Shown one piece after another: positions 1 to 22,813 of a stretch of 34,031 nt of DNA. Origin of the DNA: an uncultured Desulfohalobiaceae bacterium (lineage in GTDB: Bacteria; Desulfobacterota; Desulfovibrionia; Desulfovibrionales; Desulfothermaceae); assembly GCA_964395575.1 (NCBI GenBank), contig CAYNCR010000003.1:1-34031 (forward strand). The letters are read 5' to 3'. The notes beneath the pieces are model-generated. The model saw only the letters and a program-made list of their open reading frames with translations, did not search any database and was not told the origin of the DNA. Numbering within the stretch: the stretch's first letter is position 1; every line of letters begins with the position of its first letter. A program made the translations under genes and the position numbers.

Positions 1-343
1 CTTTGTTGGTACCGCTTGAGGTGGAATTGATTCCCTCCAGTCATCATTATTCACACCATTTGAATCCTGCTTCCCCGGAAGTGATTCGGGAATGTCGATG
101 AGGTGTTGCGTATCCCATCATGGGAAACCCGGGATGAAACCTGCGCTTCAGCGTCCACCCGCCTTCGCCTCGCGCCATTTTCATGCTTGGTTGTGCCCGG
201 GTCGGCCCGGGAATGACGGTTGTAATTTTGCTCTGGTGTGTCCGCGCTTGTTCTGGCATACGTGAGGCGGGACGGGGAGAACGGAACTTCACCCGCGAGG
301 CTTGCGAACCGGATAAGGCGGTATAAGTTGCCTGGAGGTGCCC

Positions 344-1990
344 ATGCGGATCGGCCTGGCGCAGATCAATCCCACTGTCGGGGCCTTTGCCCACAACTGC
401 GAACGGATTGTTCGCTCCGCGGAACAAGCGGCTCGCGAGGGCTGCGACCTTGTGGTCCTTCCGGAGATGGCCCTACTGGGCTATCCGCCACAGGATCTCC
501 TGGACAGGGAGGGCTTTGTCAGCGATAGCCTCGTCTATTGGCAGCGCATCGCCGAGGCGAGCCGGGATGTGGCCATCCTCTGCGGCGTGGTGGCCCCCAA
601 TGAGTCCGGAGCGGGCAAGCCCTACCAAAACGCGGCCCTGTTCTGCAGCGGCGGCCGCGTCGAGCGGGTCATGGCCAAACGGCTGCTACCCTCCTACGAC
701 GTTTTCGACGAGGAGCGCTATTTCGAGCCGGGCACCGAGCCGGCCTGGGTGGATTTTGGCGGGCTGCGCCTGGGCATTACCGTCTGCGAGGATATCTGGA
801 CCCGGGAGCCTTTCGGGCCGGGCCAGCGCTATCGCCAGGACCCTGTACGGGACGTGGCGGAACACGGCCCGGACCTTCTGATCAACCTCTCGGCTTCGCC
901 CTATCATACTGGAAAGGGAGAGCGGATCGGCGAACTGCTCGCCGTCCACGCACGTGAGCACAGAATGCCCGTGCTCTACGTGAATCAGGTGGGGGGCAAC
1001 GACGAGCTCGTCTTCCACGGCCGCAGCATGGCCCTGGACCGTCAGGGGGAAGTGATCGCCCGTGGAGCGGATTTTACTGAGGACCTCATTCTATGGGACA
1101 ATGATCTATCGGGGAAGGTGGCACCGCCCGAATTCACCGCCAGTGAAGAGGGCGAAATCCTGAAAGCCCTGGAGCTGGGCCTTAGGGACTACATCGCCAA
1201 ATGCGGCTTCAGCCGGGTGGTGCTCGGCCTGAGCGGCGGGATCGATTCCGCCGTGACCGCCTGCGTGGCCGTGTCCGCCCTGGGGGCGGAAAACGTGCGA
1301 ACCGTGGCCCTGCCGGGGCCGTACAACGATCCCGCCAGCCTGGAGCTGTCCCGGGAGCTGGCGGCGAATTTGGGGACCGCCTTCGAGGTGCTTCCCATCG
1401 ACGAGCTGTACCACGGCGCGAATCAGACCCTTTCCCACGTTTTTCAAGGCCGGGAGCGGGACGTGACCGAGGAGAACGTCCAGGCCAGGCTCCGCGGCCT
1501 CCTGCTTATGGCCGTCTCCAACAAGTTCGGCGAGCTCCTGCTCAACACCGGCAACAAGTCCGAGCTGGCAGTGGGGTACTGCACCCTGTACGGAGATATG
1601 AACGGGGGCATCTCCGTCCTGGGAGACGTGCCCAAAACCTCGGTCTACGGCGTCGCCCGCCTGATCAACGAGGAACAGGGCTGGATCCCGGAAGGGATCA
1701 TTTCCCGTCCGCCCTCGGCCGAGCTGAGCCCTGATCAGAAGGACGAGGATTCCCTGCCGCCCTACCATGTCCTGGATGCTATCCTCTATGCCTATGTGGA
1801 GGAGAACCTGTCCCTGGAGGCAATCGCAGCGAGAGGGTATGACGCTGGTACAGCCGAATGGGTTGTCCACCGGATCTACACCAATGAATACAAGCGGAGG
1901 CAGGGGCCGCCGGTCCTGCGCGTGACCAGCAAGGCCTTCGGAATGGGCCGGCGCCTGCCCATCGCCCACGGATATCGGGATCGTGCATGA
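344..1990 (+). CDS. nadE: Glutamine-dependent NAD+ synthetase
   Basis: ORF 338..1990. It has an N-terminal CN-hydrolase (glutaminase) domain and a C-terminal NAD synthase domain with the SGGIDS PP-loop. I prefer ATG 344, preceded by GGAGG at 334-338, over GTG 338. Confidence 0.9.
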   Translation: MRIGLAQINPTVGAFAHNCERIVRSAEQAAREGCDLVVLPEMALLGYPPQDLLDREGFVSDSLVYWQRIAEASRDVAILCGVVAPNESGAGKPYQNAALFCSGGRVERVMAKRLLPSYDVFDEERYFEPGTEPAWVDFGGLRLGITVCEDIWTREPFGPGQRYRQDPVRDVAEHGPDLLINLSASPYHTGKGERIGELLAVHAREHRMPVLYVNQVGGNDELVFHGRSMALDRQGEVIARGADFTEDLILWDNDLSGKVAPPEFTASEEGEILKALELGLRDYIAKCGFSRVVLGLSGGIDSAVTACVAVSALGAENVRTVALPGPYNDPASLELSRELAANLGTAFEVLPIDELYHGANQTLSHVFQGRERDVTEENVQARLRGLLLMAVSNKFGELLLNTGNKSELAVGYCTLYGDMNGGISVLGDVPKTSVYGVARLINEEQGWIPEGIISRPPSAELSPDQKDEDSLPPYHVLDAILYAYVEENLSLEAIAARGYDAGTAEWVVHRIYTNEYKRRQGPPVLRVTSKAFGMGRRLPIAHGYRDRA

Positions 1991-2108
1991 GTGTGCGAGT
2001 GGAGTGTGTATGACTGTGTCTGTGTAAGTGTGTGAGAAAGAGGAGAGCGCAGTGGCGAGCAAAAGGCGGAAAGAGAGTTTTTTTCGAGAGCGTGGAATGG
2101 GTGCGTGA

Positions 2109-2498
<390 letters not shown>

Positions 2499-2531
2499 CA
2501 GGGCGTTGAAAATCTTCCAATTGCTTCGTTG

Positions 2532-2596
2532 TCCGGCACCTATTTGAGGTGACAAAAGGGCGTCTGATTGACTTGGCTTCACAAATAGGTGCCGGA
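2532..2596 (+). terminator. Long hairpin downstream of glnB: 15-bp perfect stem with 35-nt loop and no U-run
   Basis: TCCGGCACCTATTTG (2532-2546) is the exact reverse complement of CAAATAGGTGCCGGA (2582-2596). It starts 34 nt after the glnB stop. Its function as a terminator is uncertain because no T-tract follows. Confidence 0.35.
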
Positions 2597-2787
2597 TTCA
2601 AACTCTCATGGAGCTTGCTACGCAACGAGCTTGAACTTTTTTCGAGCCTGCCCCTTGAAATTTTGGGGCGCCCTGCCTGATAAGGACTTTCTCAGCAAAC
2701 CGCTAGGCCGCTGCATTCTTCTGTGCCGGGTCGACCCGCCACAGGAGCGGGAAAGCGGGTGAATCATCCATCCATTGCGGTACGTCT

Positions 2788-5481
2788 ATGTATCAAAAAG
2801 CGAATGCTGAAGACTCAATCCGGGACGGGCAGACGTCCTGGAATATATGCCTGACAAGGCTGCAGAGCATCAGGGACGCCTTTCGAAGGGAATGCGGAGA
2901 GGTGGCCCCGGGAATCGGCGGTGTCAGGAGCTACGCCCAGCGTGTCCGGGCCGTGCTGGTCCGCGATCTGCCCCGGGAAGGGTTCCCTTCCCAAGGATGG
3001 GCCCTCATCGGTGTGGGGGGTCTGGGCAGGGGAGAGCTCAGCTTCCTCTCGGACCTGGATCTGCTCCTGCTCTATCGCCGCAGGCTGCCCGGGACTCTGG
3101 AAAACTTCCTGCGGCAGCTGGTCTCCGGGCTCTGGGACAGCGGCTTCAAGGTAGGGCACGTGGTTTCCTCTCCCACCGGGCTGGACCAGCTCATGCAACA
3201 GGATTTCGCCACTCGGACCAATTATCTGGAAACCAGCCTCATAACCGGGGACACAGAGCTCTATCGCACCTGGCGCGCCCACATGAGCCGCAGTCGGGGG
3301 CCACGGCGGACCAGGCGCTTCGTGGACGAGCTTGTTCGTTATCGCGAAGAGCGCCTGTCCCGTTACGGGGAAAGCAGCTATCTCCTGGAGCCCCAGGTCA
3401 AGGAGGGTCCGGGAGGGCTGCGCGATCTGCACATCCTGCGCTGGGCAGGTGCCGTCCTGCTGGGCGATCCGGGTCTGGACACCCTGAAATCGCGGGGATT
3501 CCTTACAGACGACGAGCGGCAGTGGCTGGAGCAAGCCCAGGACTTTCTGTGGCGGGTGCGGCTGCAGCTCCACGATCTCCGCGGCAGGCAGCAGGATCAG
3601 CTTCTTCTGCAGGAACAGCAGGATGTTGCGAAAAGGCTGGGTTTTGTCCGGAGCAGCGGGGACTCTGGGGTCGAGGCCTTCATGCGCCGCTATTACCAGC
3701 ATACCGCCAGGGTTCGCAGGGTCACCTCCTTCCTGCTGGAACGCTTCCAGGAGGACGTTACTCCCGCCTCTCGGCGCCGGAAGAAGCGAACCATCCTCCC
3801 TGGTCCCTTCCTCCGGGAAGACGGCCACATCCGCTTTCAGGACCCGGAGCTCATCCCCTCCAACCCCGGTCTTCTCATGGAGCTCTTCTGGCAGGCCGCC
3901 CGTGCCGGGGCCCATTTCCATCACCAAACCGGCCAGCTGATCCGGGAGAATCTGGACACCTTCGACGAGTCCTGGCGCAAGGATCCCGCTGTTGCAGAAC
4001 GATTTTTCGACATCCTCCTGGACCCGGATACCGCCTTCCCCACCCTGAAGGTCATGCTGGAAACCGGATTTCTGGAGCAATACATCCCCGAGTTTAAGTC
4101 CATCCGCTACCGCATGCAGTACGACGTGTACCACACCTACACGGTTGACGAGCACCTCTTGCGGACCGTGAAGAAGATGCATCTGCTTCTGGGGCCGGAG
4201 CGCGAAGAGCTCCCGGCATCGGACGACGAGGACGACGTCCTGTGGAGCCGTCTTGCGGGCAAGAAGCCCCTCTTTCTGGCCGCGCTGGTCCACGATGTGG
4301 CCAAGGGGCGCGGTGGCGGCCACGCGGAAAAGGGAGAGGAGCTGGTCCGCCCCATAGGTCGGCGTCTGGGTCTGGGCACGGAGGAGAACGAAGAGCTGGC
4401 CTTCCTGGTGCGGGAGCATCTCCTCCTGCCGGAAACCGCCTTGAAACGGGACCTCTCCGATGAGAAACCCATCGAGCACTGCGCCTTCAGAGCCGGATCC
4501 AGGGAGCGGCTGTTCATGCTCTATCTTTTGACTGTCGCGGACTCCAAGGCGACCGGGCCCCAGGTGTGGAATACATGGCGCAGCTCTCTTCTCGGCGAGC
4601 TCTTTCACAAGACCAAAGCCCTCCTCTCCAGGGAGGGGTGGCAAACCCGGGACGAGCAGGCTCGCCTGGATCTGGCCCGGCTCAAAGCCGAAGAAGCCCT
4701 CCTTCGGGACCATGCATTGAGCCCCGAGGAAGTGGAGCCGTGGCTGGCGAGCCTTTCTACCCGCTATCTTTTGACCCGGTCCCCGGAAGACGTGCGACGC
4801 CATTTCTTTTTGGAGCGCCAACTGGACACGAGCGGCAAGCCACGGATCGAGGCCCGGTCCACGTCCGCGGGGTTGTGGGAGATCGTCCTGGCCTGCTTCG
4901 ATCGGCCTGGCCTGTTCGTGTTCTTGACCGGTGTCCTCTGGGCCAACGGCATCAACATCCTTTCCGCGGACATCTACACCCGTTCCTATGGCGTGGCCCT
5001 GGACGTCCTGCTCGTGGATCAGATCCCGGACCCCCTGCAGCCGGAGAGGATCTGGGACATTCTCCAGAGGGACCTGAGCAGTGTCCTCGAGGGGGAGACC
5101 TCCCTGGATGCCTTTTTCCGCCGCAAGCCGCCCAGGAAGCCTGTGGGACGGACCAAGGTCGTGCCCAAGGAAGACAGCGTGCACATCGACGAGGAAGCCT
5201 CGGATCAGTACAGTGTGATCGAGGTTTACACCTGGGAGCGGCCCGGCGTGCTCCACGTCATTTCCCAGGTGCTCTACAACTTCGGCCTCTCCATTCAGTT
5301 GGCCAAGATTGCCACTCCGGGAGCACAGGTGGTGGACGTGTTCTATGTCACGGAGGCGTCCGGGGGCAAGATCCGGGACGAAGGAGTGCATGAGCGCCTG
5401 ACCGACGCCATGCTCAGCGCCCTGCGCCGCATGGACGGCCGGGGTGGCGAGGAAAAAGCGGAATCGGATCGGGCCCAGTAG
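2788..5481 (+). CDS. glnD: [Protein-PII] uridylyltransferase / uridylyl-removing enzyme
   Basis: 897-aa ORF. It has the nucleotidyltransferase motif GGLGRGELSFLSDLDLLLLY, a central HD domain (ALVHDVAKG), and two C-terminal ACT-like domains. Confidence 0.9.
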   Translation: MYQKANAEDSIRDGQTSWNICLTRLQSIRDAFRRECGEVAPGIGGVRSYAQRVRAVLVRDLPREGFPSQGWALIGVGGLGRGELSFLSDLDLLLLYRRRLPGTLENFLRQLVSGLWDSGFKVGHVVSSPTGLDQLMQQDFATRTNYLETSLITGDTELYRTWRAHMSRSRGPRRTRRFVDELVRYREERLSRYGESSYLLEPQVKEGPGGLRDLHILRWAGAVLLGDPGLDTLKSRGFLTDDERQWLEQAQDFLWRVRLQLHDLRGRQQDQLLLQEQQDVAKRLGFVRSSGDSGVEAFMRRYYQHTARVRRVTSFLLERFQEDVTPASRRRKKRTILPGPFLREDGHIRFQDPELIPSNPGLLMELFWQAARAGAHFHHQTGQLIRENLDTFDESWRKDPAVAERFFDILLDPDTAFPTLKVMLETGFLEQYIPEFKSIRYRMQYDVYHTYTVDEHLLRTVKKMHLLLGPEREELPASDDEDDVLWSRLAGKKPLFLAALVHDVAKGRGGGHAEKGEELVRPIGRRLGLGTEENEELAFLVREHLLLPETALKRDLSDEKPIEHCAFRAGSRERLFMLYLLTVADSKATGPQVWNTWRSSLLGELFHKTKALLSREGWQTRDEQARLDLARLKAEEALLRDHALSPEEVEPWLASLSTRYLLTRSPEDVRRHFFLERQLDTSGKPRIEARSTSAGLWEIVLACFDRPGLFVFLTGVLWANGINILSADIYTRSYGVALDVLLVDQIPDPLQPERIWDILQRDLSSVLEGETSLDAFFRRKPPRKPVGRTKVVPKEDSVHIDEEASDQYSVIEVYTWERPGVLHVISQVLYNFGLSIQLAKIATPGAQVVDVFYVTEASGGKIRDEGVHERLTDAMLSALRRMDGRGGEEKAESDRAQ

Positions 5482-5513
5482 CGAGATGGAGGGCTTGGTC
5501 TCAAACGGATTGC

Positions 5514-5541
5514 GACAATGATACAAGATTGTATCATTGTC
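5514..5541. promoter_or_regulatory. AT-rich perfect 13-bp inverted repeat; candidate upstream activator site for the glnA sigma-54 promoter
   Basis: GACAATGATACAA-GA-TTGTATCATTGTC. It lies about 190 bp upstream of the -24/-12 element in an otherwise GC-rich spacer. No U-run follows, so it is a poor terminator. Confidence 0.35.
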
Positions 5542-5709
5542 ATGCCCACGCAGTTTCCGGTGTGCGTGCGAAACGACGGAAAAAAGTCCCGCGATTGAGG
5601 GATCTTTGGCTGGAGGGGCGAAAGGGGGGATACGAATTTGTGCGCTCCGGTCATTCCCTTCGCGACGCGGAACCGCTCTGTGACCATTGAAATAGTGGAA
5701 CTGGTGATT

Positions 5710-5725
5710 TGGCAAAGAAATTGCA
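5710..5725 (+). promoter_or_regulatory. Sigma-54 (-24/-12) promoter of glnA
   Basis: TGGCAAAGAAATTGCA matches TGGCAC-N5-TTGCW, with exact GG-N10-GC spacing. It lies about 125 nt upstream of the glnA ATG. Confidence 0.65.
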
Positions 5726-5849
5726 TTAAAAAGGGACAGATTGGATCCGTGCAGGAGACTCATGGCTCGGCAGTGGAGGGATGTTTTCGCTGCTTGGCCC
5801 AGTGGAGCAACTCGCGGAAGGACGTGAGATCAAGGAAACAGGAGGCAGT

Positions 5850-7262
5850 ATGAGTCCGAAAGACGTAATGGATTACGCCAAGAAGCATGGGGCCCGGATG
5901 GTGGATCTGCGCTTCCTCGACTTCCCGGGGATCTGGCAGCATTTCAGCATCCCTTTCGCTGAGTTCGACGAGGACGCCTTCGACGACGGCTTCGGCTTCG
6001 ACGGCTCGAGCATCCGTGGATGGATGCCCATCAACGCCAGCGACATGTTGGTGATTCCGGATCCGGACACCGCGATGATGGATCCCTTTACCGAGGTGCC
6101 CACTCTCACCCTGATCGGCAATATCGTGGATCCCATGACCCGGGAGAAGTTTTCCCGCGATCCGCGCTACATCGCCCAGAAGGCAGAGGACTTCGTCAAG
6201 TTCACCGGTCTTGGCGACACCGTGTTCATCGGCCCGGAGGCGGAATACTTCGTTTTCGACGACATCCGCTACGACAGCGCATCCCACTTCGGATACCACC
6301 AGATCGATTCCGTGGAGGGCATCTGGAACACCGGGAAGGACGAGAAGCCCAACCTGGGGTACAAGCCCCGGCACAAGGAGGGCTACTTCCCCGTGCCGCC
6401 AACGGACACTTATCAGGACATGCGCACCGAAATGACCGAGATCATGCAGCAGGTGGGCATGCGTATCGAGTGCCACCACCATGAGGTGGCCACCGCCGGA
6501 CAGGCGGAGATCGACATGCGCTTTACGCCCCTGGTGCACATGGGCGACCAGCTGATGTGGTTCAAGTACATCATCAAGAACGTGGCCAGGCGGCACAACA
6601 AGACCGCGACCTTCATGCCCAAGCCCCTGTACGGGGACAACGGCTCCGGGATGCACACCCATCTGAGCATCTGGAATCAGGGAGACCCCCTGTTCGCCGG
6701 GGACCGCTACGCCGGGCTGAGCGAGACCGCCATGTTCGCCATGGGAGGAATCCTGAAGCATTCCCGGGCCCTGTGCGCCCTGACCAATCCCACGACCAAC
6801 TCCTACAAGCGCCTGGTGCCCGGGTACGAGGCCCCGGTGCACCTGGCCTACTCCAGCCGGAACCGCAGCGCGGCCCTGCGCATTCCCATGTATGACACGT
6901 CGCCCAAGGCGAAGCGCATCGAGATCCGCTATCCGGACCCCTCCTGCAATGGATACATGGCCTTCAGCGCCATGCTCATGGCGGCTGTTGACGGGATCGA
7001 GAACCGCATCGACCCCGGTGAGCCCCTGGACAAGGACATCTATTCCCTGAGCCCGGAAGAGCTCCAGGGCGTGCCCTCCACGCCGGCTTCCCTGGACGAG
7101 GCCCTGGACGCCCTGGAGAAGGATCACGAGTTCCTGCTCAAGGGCGATGTGTTCACCCAGGACGTCATCGACTCCTGGATTGCCTACAAGCGGGAGCACG
7201 AAGTGGATCCCGTCCGCCTGAGGCCCCATCCCTATGAGTTCATGCTCTATTATGATATCTAG
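5850..7262 (+). CDS. glnA: Glutamine synthetase type I
   Basis: 470 aa from ATG 5850, with AGGAGG 6 nt upstream. GS-I is conserved throughout. The adenylylation-loop Tyr is retained in [10 protein letters not shown]. Confidence 0.95.
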
Positions 7263-7285
7263 GACTGAGCGCCATCCCTAGCGAT

Positions 7286-7325
7286 GCAGAAGCCGCGGCG
7301 ATGATCCATTGCCGCGGCTTTCTGC
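7286..7325 (+). terminator. Terminator-like hairpin after glnA
   Basis: GCAGAAGCCGCGGC pairs with GCCGCGGCTTTCTGC, giving 14 bp with one bulged T and an 11-nt loop. It starts 24 nt after the glnA stop. The U-tract is weak. Confidence 0.6.
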
Positions 7326-7494
7326 CTTGTGCCAGAGGCAGAGGACAGATCCCGGACGCCGGATATCAGGCACCGGATATCAAGCCTCTGAGGCCGCCTT
7401 CCATTTCAAGGGGGCCGATACAGAGTTGGCAATCCGCCTCCCGCGCAGCTTTTGCAGCAATCATCAGTCTACCGGTTGCGATACGAGGTCGACC

Positions 7495-10242
7495 ATGACC
7501 ACGGCCAGAATGGAGCACATCACCGAGATCCGGCTCATCCGGAACGCATCGACCTACTTGAGCCGGCTGCTCAACCGGCAGGAATACATGGACTGGCTCT
7601 GGAGCCGGAACAACCTCATGCGCCGCTATCCCCTGACCGAGCTTTACCGGGATCTGAGCGACGCCGCCGAGGCCTGCGCTTCCTACAGGGAGCTGGCCAG
7701 CTGCTTCCGGCAGTTCAAGCAGCGCCATTTCCTGCGCATCGGAGGCCGCGATCTCCTCGGCCTTGCGGACTTTTCCGAGACTACGCGCCAATTGAGCGAG
7801 CTGGCAGGAGTGGCCCTGCAAGTGGGCCTGAAGACATTTACGGAACGGCCCGATTTGTGGTGCGGCAATCGGGACCCAGAGGAGTTCGTCCGCAATCTGC
7901 GGGAGAACCCGGTGACCGTCATGGGTTTGGGCAAGCTGGGCGGCAGTGAGCTCAACTACGTCTCGGACGTGGATCTGGTTCTTTTTCGGCGCTTCTCCGG
8001 GGGTGACGGCGGCCACCGGAGCTTCTGCCAGGCGTTGTGCCGCCTGGTGGGGGAGCAGTTCGAGGGGGACAGGGTCTTTACAACGGACCTGCGGTTGCGG
8101 CCCATGGGCAAGGACGGAGAGTTGGTTCCGCCCATGGAGGCGGCTGCGGAGTACTACCTCAATTCCGGGAAGGCCTGGGAGCGACAGGCCCTGCTCAAGG
8201 CAAGGCCGTTTGCCGGGGACCGGGGTCTGGGACGCGCCTTCCTCCAGGAGGTAACCCCTTTTGTCTTCCGCCGGTTCATGGACTTTCAGGCACTGGAGGA
8301 GCTACGGGAAATGCGGGACCGCATTTTGGCCGAGCTCAAGCGCACGGAGCGAGACCTCTTCCAGGACGTGAAGCTGGGCCGCGGCGGAATACGGGAAATC
8401 GAGTTCACAGTGCAGTCCTTCCAGCTGATCTACGGCGGGCGCTACCGGGAGCTGGACGAGCCGAACACCCTGGCCTGCCTGGACAAGCTCCGAAAGCTGG
8501 AGCTCCTGCCGGAGGAGGTGGCTCTGCAGCTGCAGCAGGACTACCAGTTTCTGCGCAGGGTGGAGCACTGGCTGCAGCTGGACCAGAACCGCCAGACGCG
8601 GAGAATTCCCGATTCCGAGGCGGATCGGCGCAGGCTGGCCACCGCCCTCGGCTTCGGGGACAGGGTGCAGGCTTTCGCCGAGGAGCTCGAGGCCTGCGGA
8701 AACCGGGTGCACGAACACTTTACCGCCCTGTTCAGGTCAGGAGAGGAAAGAGAGGGCTCAGGAAGCAAGAGAGAGGAGACAGGAGAGACTGGAGAAAGGA
8801 CGAAGGATGGCCCAAGTGCGGCATCCCTCTCCGCCTACTCCCAGAGCCTGGAGCAGGCCCTGGCTGAATTCCCCGATCCGGTGCGGCAAACGGTCATCTC
8901 AGCGCTGGAGGACCTTTCAGGTGTGGACGGGGAGCTTTTCTCCAGGCTGATCAGCCGCATAGAGCGTTTTTTCCGGCAGGTGGCCTCCAGGCCCGGTCTG
9001 GCCAAAATGCTTGAAGCGGGCCCGCAGTGGCTGGATCAGGTGGTGCGGGGCACCCTCCGTTCGGGCATGGTGGCTTCCCTGCTGGCTCATCAGCCGGCGC
9101 TCGTGGAGGGCATTGCCTCCGCTGGCGGAGTGGGTCAGGGCTATGAGCAGTGGCGTCAGAGGGGGGAGAGCATACTCGCCGGCTGCCACGTTTTCGACGA
9201 GGCCATGGAGTGGATTCGCCGCCTGCGGAATGAGCGGCTGCTCATGCTGGCCCTGGCGGAGCAGGAGGAAGAGATCTCCGCGGAGCAAGTCAGCGGGGAG
9301 CTTTCCGATCTCGCGGACTTCGTGATCCGGCACACCTACGAGTGGGTCCGTCTTCGACTGGGGCTGGCCGAGGACCTGCCCCTCGTGGTCATGGCCCTGG
9401 GCAAGCTGGGCAGCCGGGAGTTCGGCTATCTTTCCGATCTGGATCTCATGTTCGTGTACGATCCCTCAGGCGGGGAGCAGGAAATGATCCCGGAAAAAGT
9501 GGTGCGTCTGGCGCAGCGGCTCATGCGCATGCTCAGCACCCCGCTCCAGGAGGGGCCGGGCTATTCCGTGGACGCGGAGCTCCGGCCCAGCGGGAGCTAC
9601 GGTCCGTTGGCAGTGACCCGCAAGTCCTGGGAGGATTACTACACCAATCAGGCGGATATCTGGGAGATCCAGGCCCTGCTCCGTCTCCGGGCGGTGGCCG
9701 GAAACAGGGAATTGGGACAGGACCTGGAGGAGAAGGCCCGTTCCATTTGTGCCGCCCAGCGGGCAGAGGACAGCGTCTGGCCCAGGCTGTGCCATCTGCG
9801 GCAGCGCATAGAGACGGAACGGAGCCAGGACGGCCCGGAAACCGCGGATATTAAGCTGGGGTACGGGGGAGCGGCGGATCTGGAATTTCTGGTTCAGGGC
9901 GGCCAGCTGCTCGGTTGCGGCGGAGAGATTGCCCAGGGAGAGAGAAGCGTGCTTCAGCTGACGGAGCCTGTGCTGCGAGATCTCGGCTTTTCGGATGAGC
10001 GGGCACGGACCCTGCGGCGCATCCTTGCCACCTACAGGAGCCTGGAGCATCGCCTCCAGCTGGATGTCGGCCGCAGCTCGTCCACCGTCACGAAGCAACG
10101 CTTGAGCGCGCTGCAGCAGCTTGAGCTCTGGCCCCCGGATAGCGAGGAGCAGCAGGACCTGCGGAACTGGACCGATCTGACCCGTATGCGCCAGATGGTC
10201 AGGGGGTGCTGGAGTCCCTTCTGCGAGGAGGGTCCGGGTTAG
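7495..10242 (+). CDS. glnE: Bifunctional glutamine synthetase adenylyltransferase / adenylyl-removing enzyme
   Basis: ORF 7309..10242. Two tandem GlnE nucleotidyltransferase modules are present (GKLGGSELNYVSDVDLVLF and GKLGSREFGYLSDLDLMFVY). I chose the start at ATG 7495 (MTTARMEHI) because the upstream part of the ORF covers the glnA terminator. Confidence 0.88.
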   Translation: MTTARMEHITEIRLIRNASTYLSRLLNRQEYMDWLWSRNNLMRRYPLTELYRDLSDAAEACASYRELASCFRQFKQRHFLRIGGRDLLGLADFSETTRQLSELAGVALQVGLKTFTERPDLWCGNRDPEEFVRNLRENPVTVMGLGKLGGSELNYVSDVDLVLFRRFSGGDGGHRSFCQALCRLVGEQFEGDRVFTTDLRLRPMGKDGELVPPMEAAAEYYLNSGKAWERQALLKARPFAGDRGLGRAFLQEVTPFVFRRFMDFQALEELREMRDRILAELKRTERDLFQDVKLGRGGIREIEFTVQSFQLIYGGRYRELDEPNTLACLDKLRKLELLPEEVALQLQQDYQFLRRVEHWLQLDQNRQTRRIPDSEADRRRLATALGFGDRVQAFAEELEACGNRVHEHFTALFRSGEEREGSGSKREETGETGERTKDGPSAASLSAYSQSLEQALAEFPDPVRQTVISALEDLSGVDGELFSRLISRIERFFRQVASRPGLAKMLEAGPQWLDQVVRGTLRSGMVASLLAHQPALVEGIASAGGVGQGYEQWRQRGESILAGCHVFDEAMEWIRRLRNERLLMLALAEQEEEISAEQVSGELSDLADFVIRHTYEWVRLRLGLAEDLPLVVMALGKLGSREFGYLSDLDLMFVYDPSGGEQEMIPEKVVRLAQRLMRMLSTPLQEGPGYSVDAELRPSGSYGPLAVTRKSWEDYYTNQADIWEIQALLRLRAVAGNRELGQDLEEKARSICAAQRAEDSVWPRLCHLRQRIETERSQDGPETADIKLGYGGAADLEFLVQGGQLLGCGGEIAQGERSVLQLTEPVLRDLGFSDERARTLRRILATYRSLEHRLQLDVGRSSSTVTKQRLSALQQLELWPPDSEEQQDLRNWTDLTRMRQMVRGCWSPFCEEGPG

Positions 10243-10302
10243 GCCTTGAGCGAGACTTGCCCGAACGCGCTCTCTGTGTTGCAATTTTATTTTCCTTGAG
10301 TG

Positions 10303-10535
10303 GTAACTATTCAGCACTTTGCCGAACCGTAAGCCGACACGGGGTGTTTTGCCTCATGCAGCTCCGACTCTGGATTTTCTAACGTCCGGCACTCACTCTC
10401 CCAGAACCTTAGAGAATTTGGGCAAGCGTGAAGAAAGTGAGTGCCGGACGAAGAAAATCTGGCATCGTCTCCGCTGAAATGATTCAAAATACCCCGTGTC
10501 GGCTTACAATAGTTAGTGGAGTGGTGAATAGTTAC
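10303..10535. mobile_element. MITE-like nested-palindromic element, copy 1 (233 bp)
   Basis: Terminal inverted repeats are GTAACTATTCAGCAC and GTGGTGAATAGTTAC. A perfect 8-bp direct duplication CTTGAGTG flanks it at 10295-10302 and 10536-10543. Inner inverted-repeat tiers are GTAAGCCGACACGGGGT and CGTCCGGCACTCACT. A second copy lies at 23456-23686. Confidence 0.7.
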
Positions 10536-10650
10536 CTTGAGTGAATCATTTCTTAAAGGGGCCGTTGAAAGTCTTCGGCCCCTCCTTCGTGCCGCGAGCC
10601 GAGGCTCTATCTCCGCTTCGGATGCGAAGACCCCAAAAACAGGAGAACCT

Positions 10651-11940
10651 ATGGCCACAGTGCATTCGCGGCAAAGCGAGGACTTGCTTCTGAAAAATAC
10701 CCTCACCGGCCGCCGCGACCCCTTCAGACAGCGCCACGGAGACGGGGTTCGGCTGTTCACCTGCGGCCCCTCCGTGTATAATCGTCCCCATATCGGCAAC
10801 TATCGCACCTACCTTGTCCAGGACATCCTCCAGCGCTATTTGGAGTACCGTGGGCATCACGTCCTGCGCGTGCTCAACTTCACCGACGTTGAGGACAAGG
10901 CGGTCGACGAGGCCAAGCGGCGCGGCCTGAGCCTGTTCGATCTGACCCGGGACAACGAGGCCATCTTCCTGCACGAGGCGATGCGCCTGGGCATCCGGCT
11001 TCCCGGCATCATCCCCAGATCCTCGACCAGTGTGGACCAGGCGGTGGAGCTGATCCGCATCCTGCTGGACAAGGGACACGCCTATCGCTACCGGGGAAGC
11101 GTATTCTTCGATCCCTTGACCTTGCCGGACTTCGGCAAGCTCTTCGGCCTGGATCTCTCCAAGTGGCCCCAAAAACGGATCCGTTTCTGGCGGGATACTT
11201 ATCCGGGCAAACGCTGGAATCTGGGAGATTTTATCCTCTGGCACGCGGCCAAGCGGGGCGAGCCGGAGGCCTTTGTCTGGGATACCGCCCTTGGGCGGGG
11301 GCGCCCCGCCTGGAACATCCAGGATCCGGCCATGATCAGCCAGCATCTGGGGTACGAGCTGGACATCTGCTGCGGCGGGGTGGACAATCTCTACCGTCAC
11401 CACGACTACAACATTGCGGTCATGGAGGCGGTTTCCGGGAAGGAGCTGGCTCCGTGCTGGCTGCACGGAGAGCACCTGCTGGTTCGCGGGGCCAAGATGT
11501 CCAAGAGCAAGGGCAATATCATCTATCCCGAGGATATGTTCCGGGATGGGGTGAGCCCGCATGAGCTGCGCTTCTATCTGCTGTCCGGGCACTACCGCAA
11601 AACAATGAGCCTGACCGATCGGCGTCTGGAAAGGGCACGGGAGCGATTGGACCGCATCCGGGGCCGCATCCGCCTGCTGCGGGAAGGGGCGAAAGATGCC
11701 GCTCCGGATGCTGATGCGGAAGCCTTTGAAGACGTAAGAAAGATGCGACTGCTGGCGGAGCAATACCTGGATGACGATCTCGATGTGCCGGGAGCTGTGG
11801 AGAGTTTGGAGCGGGATCTGTCCGAGCTCGTCCGGAAGCGGGAGCAAAACAGCCTTTCTTCCGGCGCTTGCGCCCTGGCTCTGAAAGAGCTGGGACGGAT
11901 CGACAGGGTGCTCGGGTTCCTGGGAGCGGCAGATGGATGA
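10651..11940 (+). CDS. cysS: Cysteine--tRNA ligase family protein (divergent active site, lacks C-terminal anticodon-binding domain)
   Basis: ORF 10537..11940, read from ATG 10651 with AGGAGA at 10641-10646. It has the class I aaRS motifs PHIGN and KMSKSKGN and is colinear with E. coli CysRS (CGPSVY, DFILWH, GRPAWNIQDPAM, RHHDYNIA, RFYLLSGHYR, DDDLDVPGA). The symbol is given at family level only; see findings. Confidence 0.75.
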   Translation: MATVHSRQSEDLLLKNTLTGRRDPFRQRHGDGVRLFTCGPSVYNRPHIGNYRTYLVQDILQRYLEYRGHHVLRVLNFTDVEDKAVDEAKRRGLSLFDLTRDNEAIFLHEAMRLGIRLPGIIPRSSTSVDQAVELIRILLDKGHAYRYRGSVFFDPLTLPDFGKLFGLDLSKWPQKRIRFWRDTYPGKRWNLGDFILWHAAKRGEPEAFVWDTALGRGRPAWNIQDPAMISQHLGYELDICCGGVDNLYRHHDYNIAVMEAVSGKELAPCWLHGEHLLVRGAKMSKSKGNIIYPEDMFRDGVSPHELRFYLLSGHYRKTMSLTDRRLERARERLDRIRGRIRLLREGAKDAAPDADAEAFEDVRKMRLLAEQYLDDDLDVPGAVESLERDLSELVRKREQNSLSSGACALALKELGRIDRVLGFLGAADG

Positions 11941-12083: not shown

Positions 12084-12647
12084 ATGAACAGATGGACTAC
12101 CGTGCTGCTCTCGATGCTCGTTGCCGTGTTTCTTGTCGTCAGCTTTACCTCGGGGGCCTTGGCGCAGGAAAGCAAGGCCTTCCAGGCCAGCCTGACCCCG
12201 AAGATAGCCGTGCATGACCCCGATGTCATGATCGAGGGGGTGTCGCTGGGCATTTGGAGCGAGAACCCGCAGAAGGCCTTCGCTCTCGGTTTCGTGAGCG
12301 GCAGCACCGGCCACAGCAAGGGCTTCAGCTGGTCTTTTCTCGTGAACTATGCAGACAGCTATTCCGGGGTTCACTGGGCGCCGGTCAACTATACCAAGAT
12401 GGATTTCACTGGCTGGCAGAGCGGTATGGTCAACATAACCAAGCAGGGCTTCAAGGGGTTTCAATCCGGATTCGTGAATTATGCCGGCGTAATGACAGGG
12501 CTTCAGCTGGGACTGGTGAACTACGCGAAGACAGCGGACAGCGGGCTGCAGCTCGGGCTGGCGAACGTGATCAGCGAGAACAGGTGGTTCGAGGACTTTC
12601 CCAATTCCCTCGCGCCCGGCTTTGTGATCGCCAACTGGCGCTTCTAG
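12084..12647 (+). CDS. Secreted/outer-membrane repeat protein (G-x-Q-x-G-x-V-N repeats)
   Basis: GGAGGAG RBS. The signal peptide is MNRWTTVLLSMLVAVFLVVSFTSGALA. Repeats include GWQSGMVN, GFQSGFVNY, GLQLGLVNY and GLQLGLANV. The C-terminal residue is Phe (WRF). Confidence 0.6.
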   Translation: MNRWTTVLLSMLVAVFLVVSFTSGALAQESKAFQASLTPKIAVHDPDVMIEGVSLGIWSENPQKAFALGFVSGSTGHSKGFSWSFLVNYADSYSGVHWAPVNYTKMDFTGWQSGMVNITKQGFKGFQSGFVNYAGVMTGLQLGLVNYAKTADSGLQLGLANVISENRWFEDFPNSLAPGFVIANWRF

Positions 12648-12746: not shown

Positions 12747-13571
12747 TCACCTGGCGGGCTGCTTGAGAACTTCCTGCATCCATCGGGCCAGGGCCAGGCC
12801 GAAGAGACGGTTGTATCCAGCCTTGCCGCCTAGGCCCTTGGTCCCGAAGAGGAAGTTGATTTCCAGCAAAACGGGCTCCGTGTCCCCTGGAAAGGCGATG
12901 TCGAAGGCCGCCAGGTCGATGCCCGAGGCTCGGGCCGCTTCCACGGCCAGATCCCGGCCCCGCCGCTGCAGCTCGGGATGGGCATCGTGCTCGATTTCGG
13001 CCCCTTGGGCCACATTGTTGTAGAAGCCGTCCACCCCCACGCGGAAGTAGCTGCGCACTTCCCCGCCGACAACGACTACCCGCAGATCCCTGCCCCCGGT
13101 TTCCACCCAGCGCTGCAGAAGGACCGGCTCGTCATGGGGAAGACGCCACAGGCGATCCAGAAGCTGCCACTCGGTGCGCACGGGGAATACTTGGGAACCG
13201 CCGGCACCGCGGTCTCCCTTGAGCACACAGGGGAGCTCCAGGGCGGGGCCGTGTTCCTCCGTATGCCGCTTTGCCTCGGCAGGGTCTTGAAAGAGGCGGG
13301 ATTCCGGATGAGGAAGGCCCAGACGGCGCATGAGCCGGATTTGGTCCGTCTTGCCCCGGTAGTGATACCTGGCCTCGATGCGGGGGAAGATATTCTCTGC
13401 CAGAGAGGCTACCGCACGACAGCGCCCCGGAGAGAAATAGCGGGGCAGGAGCACGCCTGCGGCGCCCCGGATCAACTCTTTGCGCTGGGGAGTCAGCTCC
13501 GCGAGGGCGGGGATGTTCACGTCCAGGCGGATGCGGTGGTGCAGGGAGACGAAGTAGGCGCTGCCTTGCAT
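12747..13571 (-). CDS. ATP-grasp domain protein (RimK-like ligase)
   Basis: 274-aa ORF with ATP-grasp hallmarks: LPCVLKGDRGAGGSQV, LLQRWVE, DLRVVVVGGEV, and AAFDIAF...PVLLEINFLFG. Confidence 0.75.
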   Translation of the reverse strand: MQGSAYFVSLHHRIRLDVNIPALAELTPQRKELIRGAAGVLLPRYFSPGRCRAVASLAENIFPRIEARYHYRGKTDQIRLMRRLGLPHPESRLFQDPAEAKRHTEEHGPALELPCVLKGDRGAGGSQVFPVRTEWQLLDRLWRLPHDEPVLLQRWVETGGRDLRVVVVGGEVRSYFRVGVDGFYNNVAQGAEIEHDAHPELQRRGRDLAVEAARASGIDLAAFDIAFPGDTEPVLLEINFLFGTKGLGGKAGYNRLFGLALARWMQEVLKQPAR

Positions 13572-18228: not shown

Positions 18229-19296
18229 CTATTCCTGGAAGTGATCCAGGTACTGGCCGTAGCCCTCCTTTTCCAGGTCCTCCTTGGGAATGAAGCGCAG
18301 AGCGGCGGAGTTCATGCAGTAGCGCTTGCCCGTGGGCTCGGGGCCGTCGTCGAAGACGTGCCCCAGGTGCGAATCCGCCTGCCTGGAGCGCACCTCGGTG
18401 CGGGTCCCGAACAGAGAGCGATCTTCTTGGGTGACGATATTGTTCGCCTCCAGGGGGCGGGTGAAGCTGGGCCATCCCGTGCCGGACTCGAATTTGTGCC
18501 TGGAGGAGAACAGGGGCTCGCCGGAAACGATGTCCACGTAGATCCCCTCCTGCTTGTTGTCCCAATAGGCGTTGTCGAAAGCCGGCTCGGTCCCGTCCTG
18601 CTGAGTGACCTTGAACTGCATGGGGGTAAGCCGCTGACGCAGCTCCTCTTGGCTCGGCTTGATGAAGGAGGAGCTGCTGGAGTGTTCCTCGGTCTTGTTC
18701 GTGAACTTGTCCGGGTCATCCCAGTGCTCCTCGATAAACGAGTCCCTTCCGGAAAAGGAGCGGTAGATCTTGTAGCGGATGGCGTGCTCGTCCGCGTAGT
18801 CCTGATGCTCCTCCTCCGCGGGATAGAAGTTCTTCAGCGGCTCGATGGGGGTGACCACGGGTTGGGAGAAGCGGCCGGACCGGTCCAGCTCGCGCTTGGA
18901 TTCTTCGGCGATTTCCTTCTCCCGCTCGGTCTGGTAGAAGATGGCGGAGGTGTACTGCTCCCCCCGATCGCCAAAGGAGCCGCCCGCGTCCGTGGGGTCG
19001 AACATGCGCCAGAAGGCCTCCACCAGCTGGCGGTAGCTCACCTCCTCGGGGTCGTAGACCACCTTCACCGTCTCGCGGTGTCCCGTATCTCCGGAAGAGA
19101 CCTGCTCGTAGGAGGGATTTTCCACATGCCCTCCGCTGTATCCGGAGATCGCCTCGCGCACACCGGGGATCTTCTGGAAGTCCGCCTCGATGCACCAGAA
19201 GCATCCCCCGGCGAAGTAGGCCTCCGCGGCCTGAGCGGATGAAGCTTGGGTCAAGCCCATCAGGGAAACCAGAGTAATTGCCAGAAACGTTTTCAT
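18229..19296 (-). CDS. msrAB: Bifunctional peptide-methionine sulfoxide reductase MsrA/MsrB with signal peptide
   Basis: The signal peptide is [23 protein letters not shown]. The MsrA motif is GGCFWC. The MsrB domain has [18 protein letters not shown] and RYCMNS. An alternative start lies at 19308. Confidence 0.9.
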
Positions 19297-19366
19297 GATT
19301 GGCTCCATTTGCTGCGTCGATAAGCGACGTCTGCTCCCTTGGGAACAAGAGAGCTGTTTGAATGTT

Positions 19367-19526: not shown

Positions 19527-21356
<1,830 letters not shown>

Positions 21357-21454
21357 GGAGTTGTTCCTCCTGCTTGGCGCTTGCGACTGCCTGAGCGGAT
21401 GGAAGGGACAGCGCAGCGCGTTTTCCCCGAATCTGTTTGTCGAGGTTTTTGAGG

Positions 21455-22813
21455 CTAGGATCCCATCCAGGTCCGAATATAGGCGTTTACATCGAACTTG
21501 CGCCGGCATCCGGCATGGCTCATATAGCGGACGGTGCCGAAGACGGGGCGCTCCTTGAACCCGCGGTCGTGCAGGCCGCCCACGGACCAGAGGACACCGG
21601 TGTAGCCGTTGGGATCGCGGCCGTCCAGCTCGTAGCGGTCGTTGAGCCGAATAGCGTAGTCTATGGCCTGCTCCGGGCTCTCGGTCCATTCCAGGATCTT
21701 CTTGGCCCAGTACATGCGCATGTATCCGTGCATCTTCCCGGTACGGACCATCTGGGCCTGGGCCGCGTTCCAGAGGTCGTCGTGAGTGGCGGCCCCTTCC
21801 AGGTCCCGGTAGCTGTAGATGACGGGCCTTGGATCCTCGCGGTGCTTGTTCAGGGTGGCCCGGGCCCAGTTCGGGAGCCCCTCGAAGGCGTCGTACGCCG
21901 GATTGTGGGAGCAGTAGTTGTCCGCAAGCTCGCGACGGATGATCAGTTCCTCCAGATAGGTCGATTTGGCGGAGGAGGGCGCGGACTCGCTGTTTACCAC
22001 TTCCAGCGCCGCGCGCTGCGGTGCGATCTGCCCGAAGTGGAAATAGGGCGAAAGACGGGACAGGGCGCCGGCGTTGGGATCGTTGCGCTTGGCCTCGAAG
22101 AGGTGGAGGCCGTCGCGGAGAAAGCGGCTCAGGCGCTGCCATCCGGCATTCGGACCGGGATTGAGCCAGTCCACCGGCCCCACCTCCGTGTCCACGCGCA
22201 AGCCGGAGTCGATCGCCTCCCAATCTGGCTCTTTGAAATCGATTCCTGTGACTGCCGCGGACTGGGAAGCGGGCTCTGGGAAGGGCCCGAGGAATTCGTC
22301 CAGTTGGCGCTGGATCTTGGGGCGAATGGTGCGCGCTGCGAATTCCTGCTTGTCCGAGGCCTGCCAGCAGGGCACCACGTTGTGGGCATCCACAAGGACC
22401 AAGGGGGCCTTGATGCGCCCAGCGACCTCGCTGCGCCATTCCTCCTTGATGCGCAAGGGATCGAAGTCGCAGATCAGGCTCTCCGCGTCCGCGGAGCTGA
22501 CCAGCTCCGCGGCCCGCTCTGCCGGATTGCCCCGGCGGAGGACAAAGGGGATGCCCAGCTCAAGGCACTCCCGGCATGTCTCCCGCAGTCCGCCCAGCAT
22601 GAAGGCGTACTGCCGCCAGGTGGCCTCCAGGAATTCGGGTGCCAGACAAAAGAGCACGACGACTCCTCGTTCTGCCGCCCTTGCCCGTTCCTGGGCGTGG
22701 AGCAGGGCCCAATTGTCCCGGATACGCTGATCCCGGCTCATCCAGTAGACCACGGGGCCGGTGCCGGGCTCTCCGGCCTGCAGGGTCCGTATGCGGCGAG
22801 GGTCGATGGTCAT
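21455..22813 (-). CDS. phr: Deoxyribodipyrimidine photolyase, class II
   Basis: 452 aa. Motifs are [21 protein letters not shown] and [18 protein letters not shown], typical of class II CPD photolyases. Confidence 0.9.

Follow-up and report, generated by a model that had tools for sequence, protein, structure and literature searches.

What does an enzyme with the catalytic core of a cysteinyl-tRNA synthetase (CysRS) do when two of the four residues expected to hold its cysteine-selecting zinc have been replaced and the domain at its C-terminus is gone? The question is raised by a 34,031-nucleotide stretch of DNA (hereafter the window; contig CAYNCR010000003.1 of assembly GCA_964395575.1) from an uncultured Desulfohalobiaceae bacterium, in which a single gene encodes such a protein, here named P0001. 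Comparison with its relatives suggests that P0001 most likely works as an adenylating ligase whose metal and amino-acid pocket has been rebuilt, and that it would act independently of any anticodon and probably upon an anionic acceptor. P0001 is, moreover, one of a widespread and uncharacterised family of CysRS paralogues without the anticodon-binding domain (ABD) – the WNIQD/HHDY family, so called from its altered motifs – that spans bacteria and archaea.

The zinc-ligand columns were set by HMMER alignment of P0001 to E. coli CysRS (1LI5). In this alignment C28 of the E. coli enzyme falls on C38, W205-H-I-E-C209 on W221-N-I-Q-D225, and H234-H-E-N-E238 on H250-H-D-Y-N254; the letters of the latter two stretches were verified by translating positions 11311–11412. 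The C28, C209, H234 and E238 columns read C/D/H/N in P0001 and C/C/H/E in all 15 canonical CysRSs aligned, and the differences are therefore no slip of alignment. A preliminary description of this DNA, made from the letters alone, had reported precisely this pattern, and its observation is confirmed, although its statement that the two proteins align without gaps does not stand: some six short indels interrupt the alignment, and most of them fall within the CP1 insertion. Nor is the pattern a local mutation. D225 is fixed in about 200 members of the family, among which the Glu238 column holds N, T, S or V, and since that column varies in this way it is evidently not a ligand in this family. 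The gene and the elements within it are as follows.

10651–11940, plus strand: gene for P0001, a 429-amino-acid CysRS paralogue lacking the ABD, stop codon included (open reading frame, translation, profile matches, AlphaFold 2 model).
10762–10800, plus strand: C38-GPSVY, holding the equivalent of zinc ligand Cys28 and the presumed alpha-amino binders G39 and S41, then H47-I-G-N50 (alignments).
11164–11232, plus strand: family-specific basic CP1 segment, WPQKRIRFWRDTYPGKRWNLGDF, in place of the acidic loop that contacts the acceptor stem in canonical enzymes (translation, alignment).
11311–11325, plus strand: W221-N-I-Q-D225, with Asp in the column of zinc ligand Cys209 and the presumed substrate-packing Trp retained (alignment, translation).
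11371–11373, plus strand: C241, a Cys invariant in the family and new to it, in the column of E. coli G225, where archaeal-type enzymes have Thr (alignments; placement in beta-4 from the model).
11398–11412, plus strand: H250-H-D-Y-N254, with His234 retained and Asn in the Glu238 column (alignments, translation).
11494–11508, plus strand: K282-M-S-K-S286, an intact KMSKS loop (family alignments).
11617–11937, plus strand: four-helix bundle (amino acids 323–421) equivalent to the helical bundle of CysRS; P0001 terminates here (secondary structure of the model).

An open reading frame spans 10537–11940 on the plus strand; translation from the ATG at 10651 gives 429 residues, and this start agrees with the N-termini of the closest homologues. 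Over amino acids 26–330 the protein matches tRNA-synt_1e (PF01406, Pfam) with 237 bits, while against the cysS equivalog model of NCBIfam (TIGR00435) it scores 279.3 bits, below the cut-off of 340, across model positions 2–399 of 466. The alignment to E. coli CysRS stops at residue 394–397 of 461, and CysS_C (PF23493) was matched neither in the Pfam and TIGR00435 profile scans nor in the alignment to 1LI5. CysS_C is the sole domain absent: the helical bundle that precedes it is kept in the model, and its DDDLD motif is retained. The earlier statement that the anticodon-binding domain is missing thus holds for the small alpha/beta domain only. The HIGH motif was rightly reported to read HIGN (amino acids 47–50), yet this is no sign of defect or degeneration, because HIGN is also the native motif of archaeal-type canonical CysRSs (those of Methanoperedens and a spirochaete).

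The suspicion that the gene is not the housekeeping cysS proved well founded. The host genome – a metagenome-assembled genome (MAG) of 383 contigs, 88% complete – carries a canonical cysS on another contig (C214), which scores 547.9 bits against TIGR00435 over positions 1–464 and has HIGH, WHIEC, HHENE and KMSKS; P0001 is therefore not the enzyme on which the cell relies as its CysRS. In each of the eight other family-holding genomes that we tested, too, we found a complete canonical CysRS (a Desulfobacterales MAG, a spirochaete, Methanoperedens, a Nitrospiraceae MAG, Syntrophobacter and three more Desulfobacterales). The P0001 gene is under purifying selection, dN/dS being about 0.19 against its closest relatives (loci L009 and L010). 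That P0001 is an accessory, selected, non-housekeeping paralogue we regard as very probable. The interpretation offered in the preliminary description is partly supported: the gene is a paralogue and its D/N pattern a fixed trait of the family, while independence of tRNA and a changed amino-acid substrate are inferences.

A third relative of CysRS and a lone CysS_C domain are also encoded in the host genome. On contig C69 (L003:549–2855, minus strand) a 768-amino-acid protein joins a cysteine synthase (PALP) to a CysRS body without recognisable HIGH or KMSKS; open reading frames (ORFs) comparable in length (770–810 amino acids) to this CysK-CysRS fusion recur widely in our phylum sample, where they are much commoner than the P0001 family. 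As an obligate partner of the family the fusion was ruled out: the spirochaete, Methanoperedens and Nitrospiraceae holders lack it, and in the phylum it is far commoner than the family. On contig C139 (L007:1429–1605, minus strand) lies a free-standing CysS_C ORF of 59 amino acids (PF23493, 29.7 bits, cut-off 23), flanked by an aldehyde-oxidoreductase-like gene, judged as such by eye, and a class II aldolase gene. A split anticodon domain acting in trans was also rejected as a general partner: in five other holders CysS_C is found only at the end of canonical or fusion genes.

How widespread is the family? A protein search with P0001 gave more than 3,000 matches. The best 120 are 404–476 amino acids long (one 303-amino-acid fragment apart) and 50–91% identical to P0001, and are named 'class I tRNA ligase family protein' or 'cysteinyl-tRNA synthetase'. 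By a pattern scan with one genome per species, at least 580 species genomes hold a relative, among them Desulfohalobiaceae, Desulfonatronovibrio, Syntrophobacteraceae, Desulfobacterales, Desulfurivibrio, Spirochaetaceae, Nitrospiraceae and Methanoperedens; the protein search added one member from Bathyarchaeota, and cultured carriers include Desulfoferrobacter suflitae DRH4, Desulfurivibrio sp. C05AmB and 'Ca. Marispirochaeta associata' JC231. Within some 200 members CGPS[IVT]Y, H[IVL]GN, WN[IV]QD, xCGGxDN, RHHDY and KMSKS are fixed or nearly so – WN[IV]QD is present in 197 of 202 sequences, KMSKS in 191 of the same 202, and xCGGxD in both family subgroups – as is a CP1 signature, WP(K/R)n-RF-x-DTY-x-G-x-RWN-x-GDF. 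Members are 405–435 amino acids long, and P0001 bears every family motif together with the basic WP...RF...RWNxGDF segment. Occurrence is patchy, with holders making up about 12 of 401 genomes in the phylum sample, none of 13 in the host's own order and 16 of 101 in the Desulfobacterales-order sample. A literature search on CysRS-like proteins and paralogues and on their zinc-ligand residues found no description of the WNIQD/HHDY family.

Taken together the residues around the former zinc site look rebuilt and not merely lost. In MshC, the tRNA-independent CysRS paralogue to which the preliminary description had likened P0001, zinc is held by C43, C231 and H256 plus the substrate thiol – so that MshC does, as stated there, keep its Cys/Cys/His site – and the alpha-amino group is bound by G44, T46 and T83 (PMC9736012). 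The equivalents in P0001, by a correspondence that rests on common motifs and on the alignment to CysRS, are C38, D225 and H250 at the metal and G39, S41 and T78 at the alpha-amino group, and all six are invariant in the family. Invariant too is W221, whose column we take to be that of the Trp which packs on cysteine in 1LI7. The neighbouring His206 and Glu208 columns (E. coli numbering) have become Asn and Gln. To these is added the new C241. In the model it lies in the strand 239–242, with C38 in the strand 33–41, and because strands beta-1 and beta-4 adjoin in the Rossmann fold, C241 may have become a ligand: it is a candidate replacement placed beside C38 by fold topology. Retention of C38, H250, W221 and the alpha-amino binders, invariance of D225 and the appearance of C241 are together what give the pocket the look of a remodelled site.

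The motifs also suggest where the family came from. Canonical bacterial CysRSs read CGVTVY, HIGH, WHxEC, DIHGGGxD and FPHHENE, whereas archaeal-type canonical enzymes (Methanoperedens and a spirochaete) read CGPTVY, HIGN, WHIEC, DIHTGGVD and HH(Q/T)NE; CGP, HIGN and GGVDN are common to the latter and the family. In a tree of the family and the 15 canonical CysRSs, obtained by a quick IQ-TREE search and rooted at the midpoint only, the family is monophyletic (SH-aLRT 100) and sits on a long stem (1.41 substitutions per site), with P0001 inside the clade and archaeal sequences as its earliest branches. Its sister (SH-aLRT 95) is an ABD-less paralogue of Methanoperedens (G403:C25:6954–8147, locus L114; about 402 amino acids; CGPSVY, HIGN, WHIEC, DIHVGGVD, HHETV), annotated as a cysteine--tRNA ligase, which is that genome's third CysRS-family gene and represents a group, confined to Methanoperedens, that numbers at least 120 clusters. 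Like the family it has CGPSVY, HIGNFRTF, EDKA and GGVDN and has lost the ABD and Glu238; unlike the family it keeps Cys209 in WHIEC, has no Cys at 225, has a CP1 that is not basic, and at 406 bits passes the cysS cut-off. It looks like an intermediate in which the ABD and Glu238 had gone and Cys209 had not. On these comparisons the family would descend from an archaeal-type (HIGN) CysRS and not from MshC.

It is the acceptor side of the protein that has been altered most. The AlphaFold 2 model of P0001 is confident overall (pLDDT 87.5, pTM 0.89), less so in the basic segment of CP1 (pLDDT 54–75), and Foldseek matches it to CysRS (TM-score 0.85 to 8QHP and 0.81 to 1U0B) and to MshC (0.79 to 8HFN). 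In alignment the acidic CP1 loop of canonical enzymes (for example R-V-E-V-D-E) is replaced by WPKKKRRF...RWNLGDF, and W172, P173, R178, F179, D182, T183, Y184, G186, R188, W189 and N190 are invariant in the family. The loop of CysRS that faces the acceptor stem is the MSGA/QAGA region treated by Mukai et al. (PMC5389517). CP1 carries a net charge of +3.8 in family members, as against -0.5 in bacterial canonical enzymes, -1 in archaeal-type canonical enzymes and -1 in the Methanoperedens ABD-less paralogue; the median isoelectric point is 8.8, versus 6.25 for bacterial and archaeal-type canonical CysRSs pooled. A basic CP1 and a high isoelectric point together point to an anionic acceptor, without telling RNA from a phosphorylated metabolite or an acidic protein.

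How might such an enzyme work? In a first step, ATP would be bound through HIGN, GGxD and KMSKS, and a small L-alpha-amino acid – cysteine most probably, or else a small molecule closely analogous to it – would sit in the former cysteine pocket (G39, S41, T78, W221), next to a metal site formed by C38, H250, D225 and probably C241, to give an aminoacyl-adenylate. In a second, the aminoacyl group would pass to an acceptor entering beneath the remodelled basic CP1 domain; lacking the C-terminal anticodon domain, the enzyme would read no anticodon. The acceptor probably carries negative charge. Foremost among the candidates would be an RNA, whether a tRNA or some other, that receives the group at its 3' end or on one of its modified bases; the analogy here is with CysRS* (of which more below) and with Glu-Q-RS (YadB), a truncated GluRS paralogue that glutamylates the queuosine of tRNA-Asp. 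A phosphorylated small molecule would rank second. We offer this two-step scheme with an RNA acceptor tentatively, as a proposal that we find plausible and stop short of calling probable. The broader proposal is the one to which, on balance, we lean: that the family represents a novel type of ligase derived from a synthetase, comparable to MshC or Glu-Q-RS, which would use a Cys/His/Asp(/Cys) metal pocket to transfer cysteine or a non-standard small amino acid to RNA or to an anionic metabolite.

Several considerations weigh against cysteine and RNA as the substrates. A basic CP1 could just as well receive an acidic carrier protein or a metabolite that bears phosphate. MshC, which is no user of tRNA, has the identical domain set, and retention of the SC-fold and helical bundle is accordingly no argument for RNA. 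As Asp has supplanted Cys and the Glu column is free to vary, the site may hold another metal or none, and the amino acid is perhaps not cysteine. Finally, the patchy distribution looks more like that of accessory metabolism than that of core RNA biology.

A rival reading makes P0001 a tRNA-independent ligase of the MshC type, joining adenylated cysteine or another small amino acid to the amine or hydroxyl of a small metabolite and so making a novel low-molecular-weight thiol or conjugate of anaerobes. The architecture matches (Rossmann, CP, SC-fold and helical bundle in about 410–430 amino acids, no CysS_C), as does the fold, and the preliminary description was to this extent right in its comparison; spread is patchy and seemingly horizontal across bacteria and archaea, as is typical of accessory metabolism; and want of a gene cluster is not fatal, msh genes being scattered in genomes too. 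Yet P0001 falls short of the MshC model (TIGR03447), at 192.9 bits against a cut-off of 485.1, the ligand Cys231 is absent, and P0001 lies nearer to archaeal-type CysRS than to MshC. A strongly basic CP1 is, besides, unlike what a neutral sugar acceptor would need, and no recurrent acceptor-making enzyme stands beside the family in 80 loci. We consider an MshC-type ligase possible, if rather doubtful.

Could P0001 instead be a true, specialised CysRS that charges tRNA-Cys or a variant of it without reading the anticodon, for instance as a stress or backup enzyme? All ATP motifs are retained, as are W221, C38 and H250; a Cys/His/Asp(/Cys) site might still hold zinc and a thiolate; and an engineered precedent exists in the D. 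tiedjei CysRS which, stripped of its ABD and given a PTVS motif, supported UGA suppression with selC* tRNA-Cys (PMC5389517). Against this, the C/C/H/E set that is universal among the canonical enzymes aligned is never found in the family, the CP1 loop that reads the acceptor stem has been replaced, a canonical CysRS co-exists in every holder tested, and the score falls under the cysS equivalog cut-off. We think this improbable. Slightly less credible still is the view that P0001 catalyses nothing and, as a pseudo-synthetase, serves to regulate or to bind, sensing an amino acid or ATP. In its favour stand the loss of two zinc ligands and the precedents of HisZ and, in the host genome itself, of the CysK-CysRS fusion that has shed HIGH and KMSKS; pseudo-enzymes, however, usually lose those very motifs, whereas HxGN, GGxD and KMSKS are invariant in about 200 family members.

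The remaining reading is that P0001 is the CysRS* of Mukai et al. 2017, dedicated to selC* tRNA-Cys(UCA). CysRS* is the closest published architecture to P0001. Its gene, cysS*, encodes an ABD-less CysRS with a mutated CP1 and lies directly 3' of selC*, a tRNA-Cys(UCA) with A1:U72, and of selB* in a subgroup of Desulfobacterales (PMC5389517; review PMC7609411); the enzyme of Desulfococcus biacutus serves selC* tRNA-Cys(UCA) in the insertion of cysteine at UGA with SelB* (PMC5389517). The domain loss is thus identical and the taxa overlap. The genomic context is not that of cysS*. There is no tRNA in the window, no SelB homologue within the stretches of 97 family loci (80 + 17) and no adjacent tRNA in the 77 (60 + 17) scanned for tRNAs. 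The host assembly, 88% complete, has one tRNA-Sec (with G73) and one selB, and selC* was not seen in it. PTVS, the CP1 motif that replaces MSGA in CysRS*, occurs in none of 202 family sequences, where the column reads PKKK, PQKR and similar. A tRNA-Sec-like gene is absent from two of five other holders checked, the spirochaete and Methanoperedens, and a link to selenium was for this reason ruled out as a general rule.

Desulfobacterales do contain loci of the selC*-selB* kind. Four genomes carry selC* (U73, UCA, G1:C72) with selB* (L139 in G486, L140 in G468, L142 in G454 and L143 in G441), and a fifth selB* of the same type lies at a contig end with no tRNA seen in the stretch (L141 in G401). 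Three selC* structures have a bulged T-stem, U73 and G1:C72, and selC* stands immediately 5' of the second SelB-like gene, in the arrangement that Mukai et al. described; the genes 3' of these loci vary (HGD-D dehydratase, sulphur transporter, periplasmic binding protein), and no cysS-like gene adjoins the second selB in 10 Desulfobacterales genomes. Among 101 Desulfobacterales genomes a family member is present, on another contig, in four of the five with a selB* of this type, versus 12 of the 96 others (hypergeometric p ~0.002, uncorrected for kinship). Because 12 of the 16 Desulfobacterales holders have no second selB, we treat this co-occurrence as a lead and not as evidence. The Methanoperedens ABD-less paralogue was also considered as a CysRS* and ruled out, its group being restricted to Methanoperedens. 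That P0001 is itself CysRS* we regard, given the absence of selB*, selC* and PTVS from the places named above, as scarcely credible.

If P0001 is an adenylating ligase with an acceptor of its own, do its neighbours give that acceptor away? To its 5' side (window 338–10242) lies a nitrogen-regulation cluster of nadE (NAD synthase), a glnD-like uridylyltransferase gene, a 489-amino-acid ORF on the minus strand without a Pfam match, and the adenylyltransferase gene glnE, which a gap of 408 bp (10243–10650) separates from the P0001 gene. Within the gap there is one match to a promoter pattern.

10483–10510, plus strand: sigma-70-like promoter match, 5' of the P0001 gene and 3' of glnE (consensus scan, 9 of 12 positions; a pattern match only).

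To the 3' side follow a 187-amino-acid ORF (12084–12647, plus strand), with a signal-peptide-like N-terminus, repeated G-x-Q/V-x-G-x-VNY motifs and no Pfam match; a gene for a RimK-like ATP-grasp ligase on the opposite strand (12747–13571, minus strand); aroB; and a DAHP synthase gene. Further on are an MsrA-MsrB fusion (18229–19308, minus strand) and a 970-amino-acid DUF255/thioredoxin-domain protein (19527–22439, minus strand).

We clustered the ORFs up to 7 kb away in the 80 loci and scanned 131 immediate neighbours against Pfam. No neighbouring gene is conserved with the family across these loci, the recurrent ones reflecting merely lineage-specific synteny: CNNM/CorC, OsmC-hydrolase, HPF-CSD and CobQ are found near the family gene in Syntrophobacteraceae, and an ArfB-like gene lies near it in six loci (Desulfobacterales and Desulfoferrobacter suflitae). 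The one conserved neighbour in the window is glnE, which stands beside the family gene only in the three closest relatives. The RimK-like gene, the 187-amino-acid ORF, the MsrA-MsrB fusion and the DUF255 protein were ruled out as conserved partners, none being kept beside the family. A search for longer homologues found no fused form of the family at E <= 1e-90, which is weak evidence; absence of a conserved neighbour and of a fusion fits a self-contained enzyme.

Paralogues of aminoacyl-tRNA synthetases have a record of unexpected products – mycothiol by way of MshC, glutamyl-queuosine by way of YadB, the modification of EF-P by PoxA – and, were the ligase reading true, anaerobic sediment microbes would make a novel product of this sort, either an RNA modification or a low-molecular-weight conjugate. 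Finding the amino acid and the acceptor might thereby bring to light, in sulfate reducers, syntrophs and anaerobic methane oxidisers, a metabolite or RNA modification not described before. The family matters for its extent, its strong conservation and its crossing of the divide between bacteria and archaea; and since databases label its members 'class I tRNA ligase family protein' or, wrongly, 'cysteine--tRNA ligase', an assignment would mend a systematic error of annotation.

Of the known systems, CysRS* resembles P0001 in being an ABD-less copy with a mutated CP1 that occurs in Desulfobacterales beside a normal CysRS; it is set apart, on its published description, by adjoining selC*-selB*, by its A1:U72 tRNA and by PTVS, none of which was seen with the P0001 family in the loci, genomes and sequences scanned. 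Glu-Q-RS is likewise a class I core without an anticodon domain, encoded by a stand-alone gene beside the real synthetase, but it derives from GluRS and its RNA target is the queuosine of tRNA-Asp, whereas an RNA target for P0001 is proposed by analogy only. MshC (TIGR03447; 3C8Z, 8HFM) is, like P0001, a CysRS paralogue of about 410 amino acids without the C-terminal anticodon domain and with equivalent alpha-amino binders; unlike the family, which has Asp in the Cys231 column, it keeps its Cys43/Cys231/His256 zinc site (PMC9736012), sequence and fold searches with P0001 rank canonical CysRS above it, and the hosts of the family are anaerobic Desulfobacterota, spirochaetes and archaea, not Actinobacteria. 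Closest in sequence and fold is archaeal-type canonical CysRS (TIGR00435; 8QHP, 1LI5/1U0B), with which P0001 shares its fold (TM-scores of 0.81–0.85), CGP[ST]xY, HIGN, GGVDN, KMSKS, HYR, DDDL, the substrate-packing Trp, Cys28 and His234, and from which it departs in having Asp at 209, a new Cys at 225, a basic CP1, no CysS_C and a score of 279 versus 340 bits – and in standing, as an extra gene, alongside the real CysRS of its genome.

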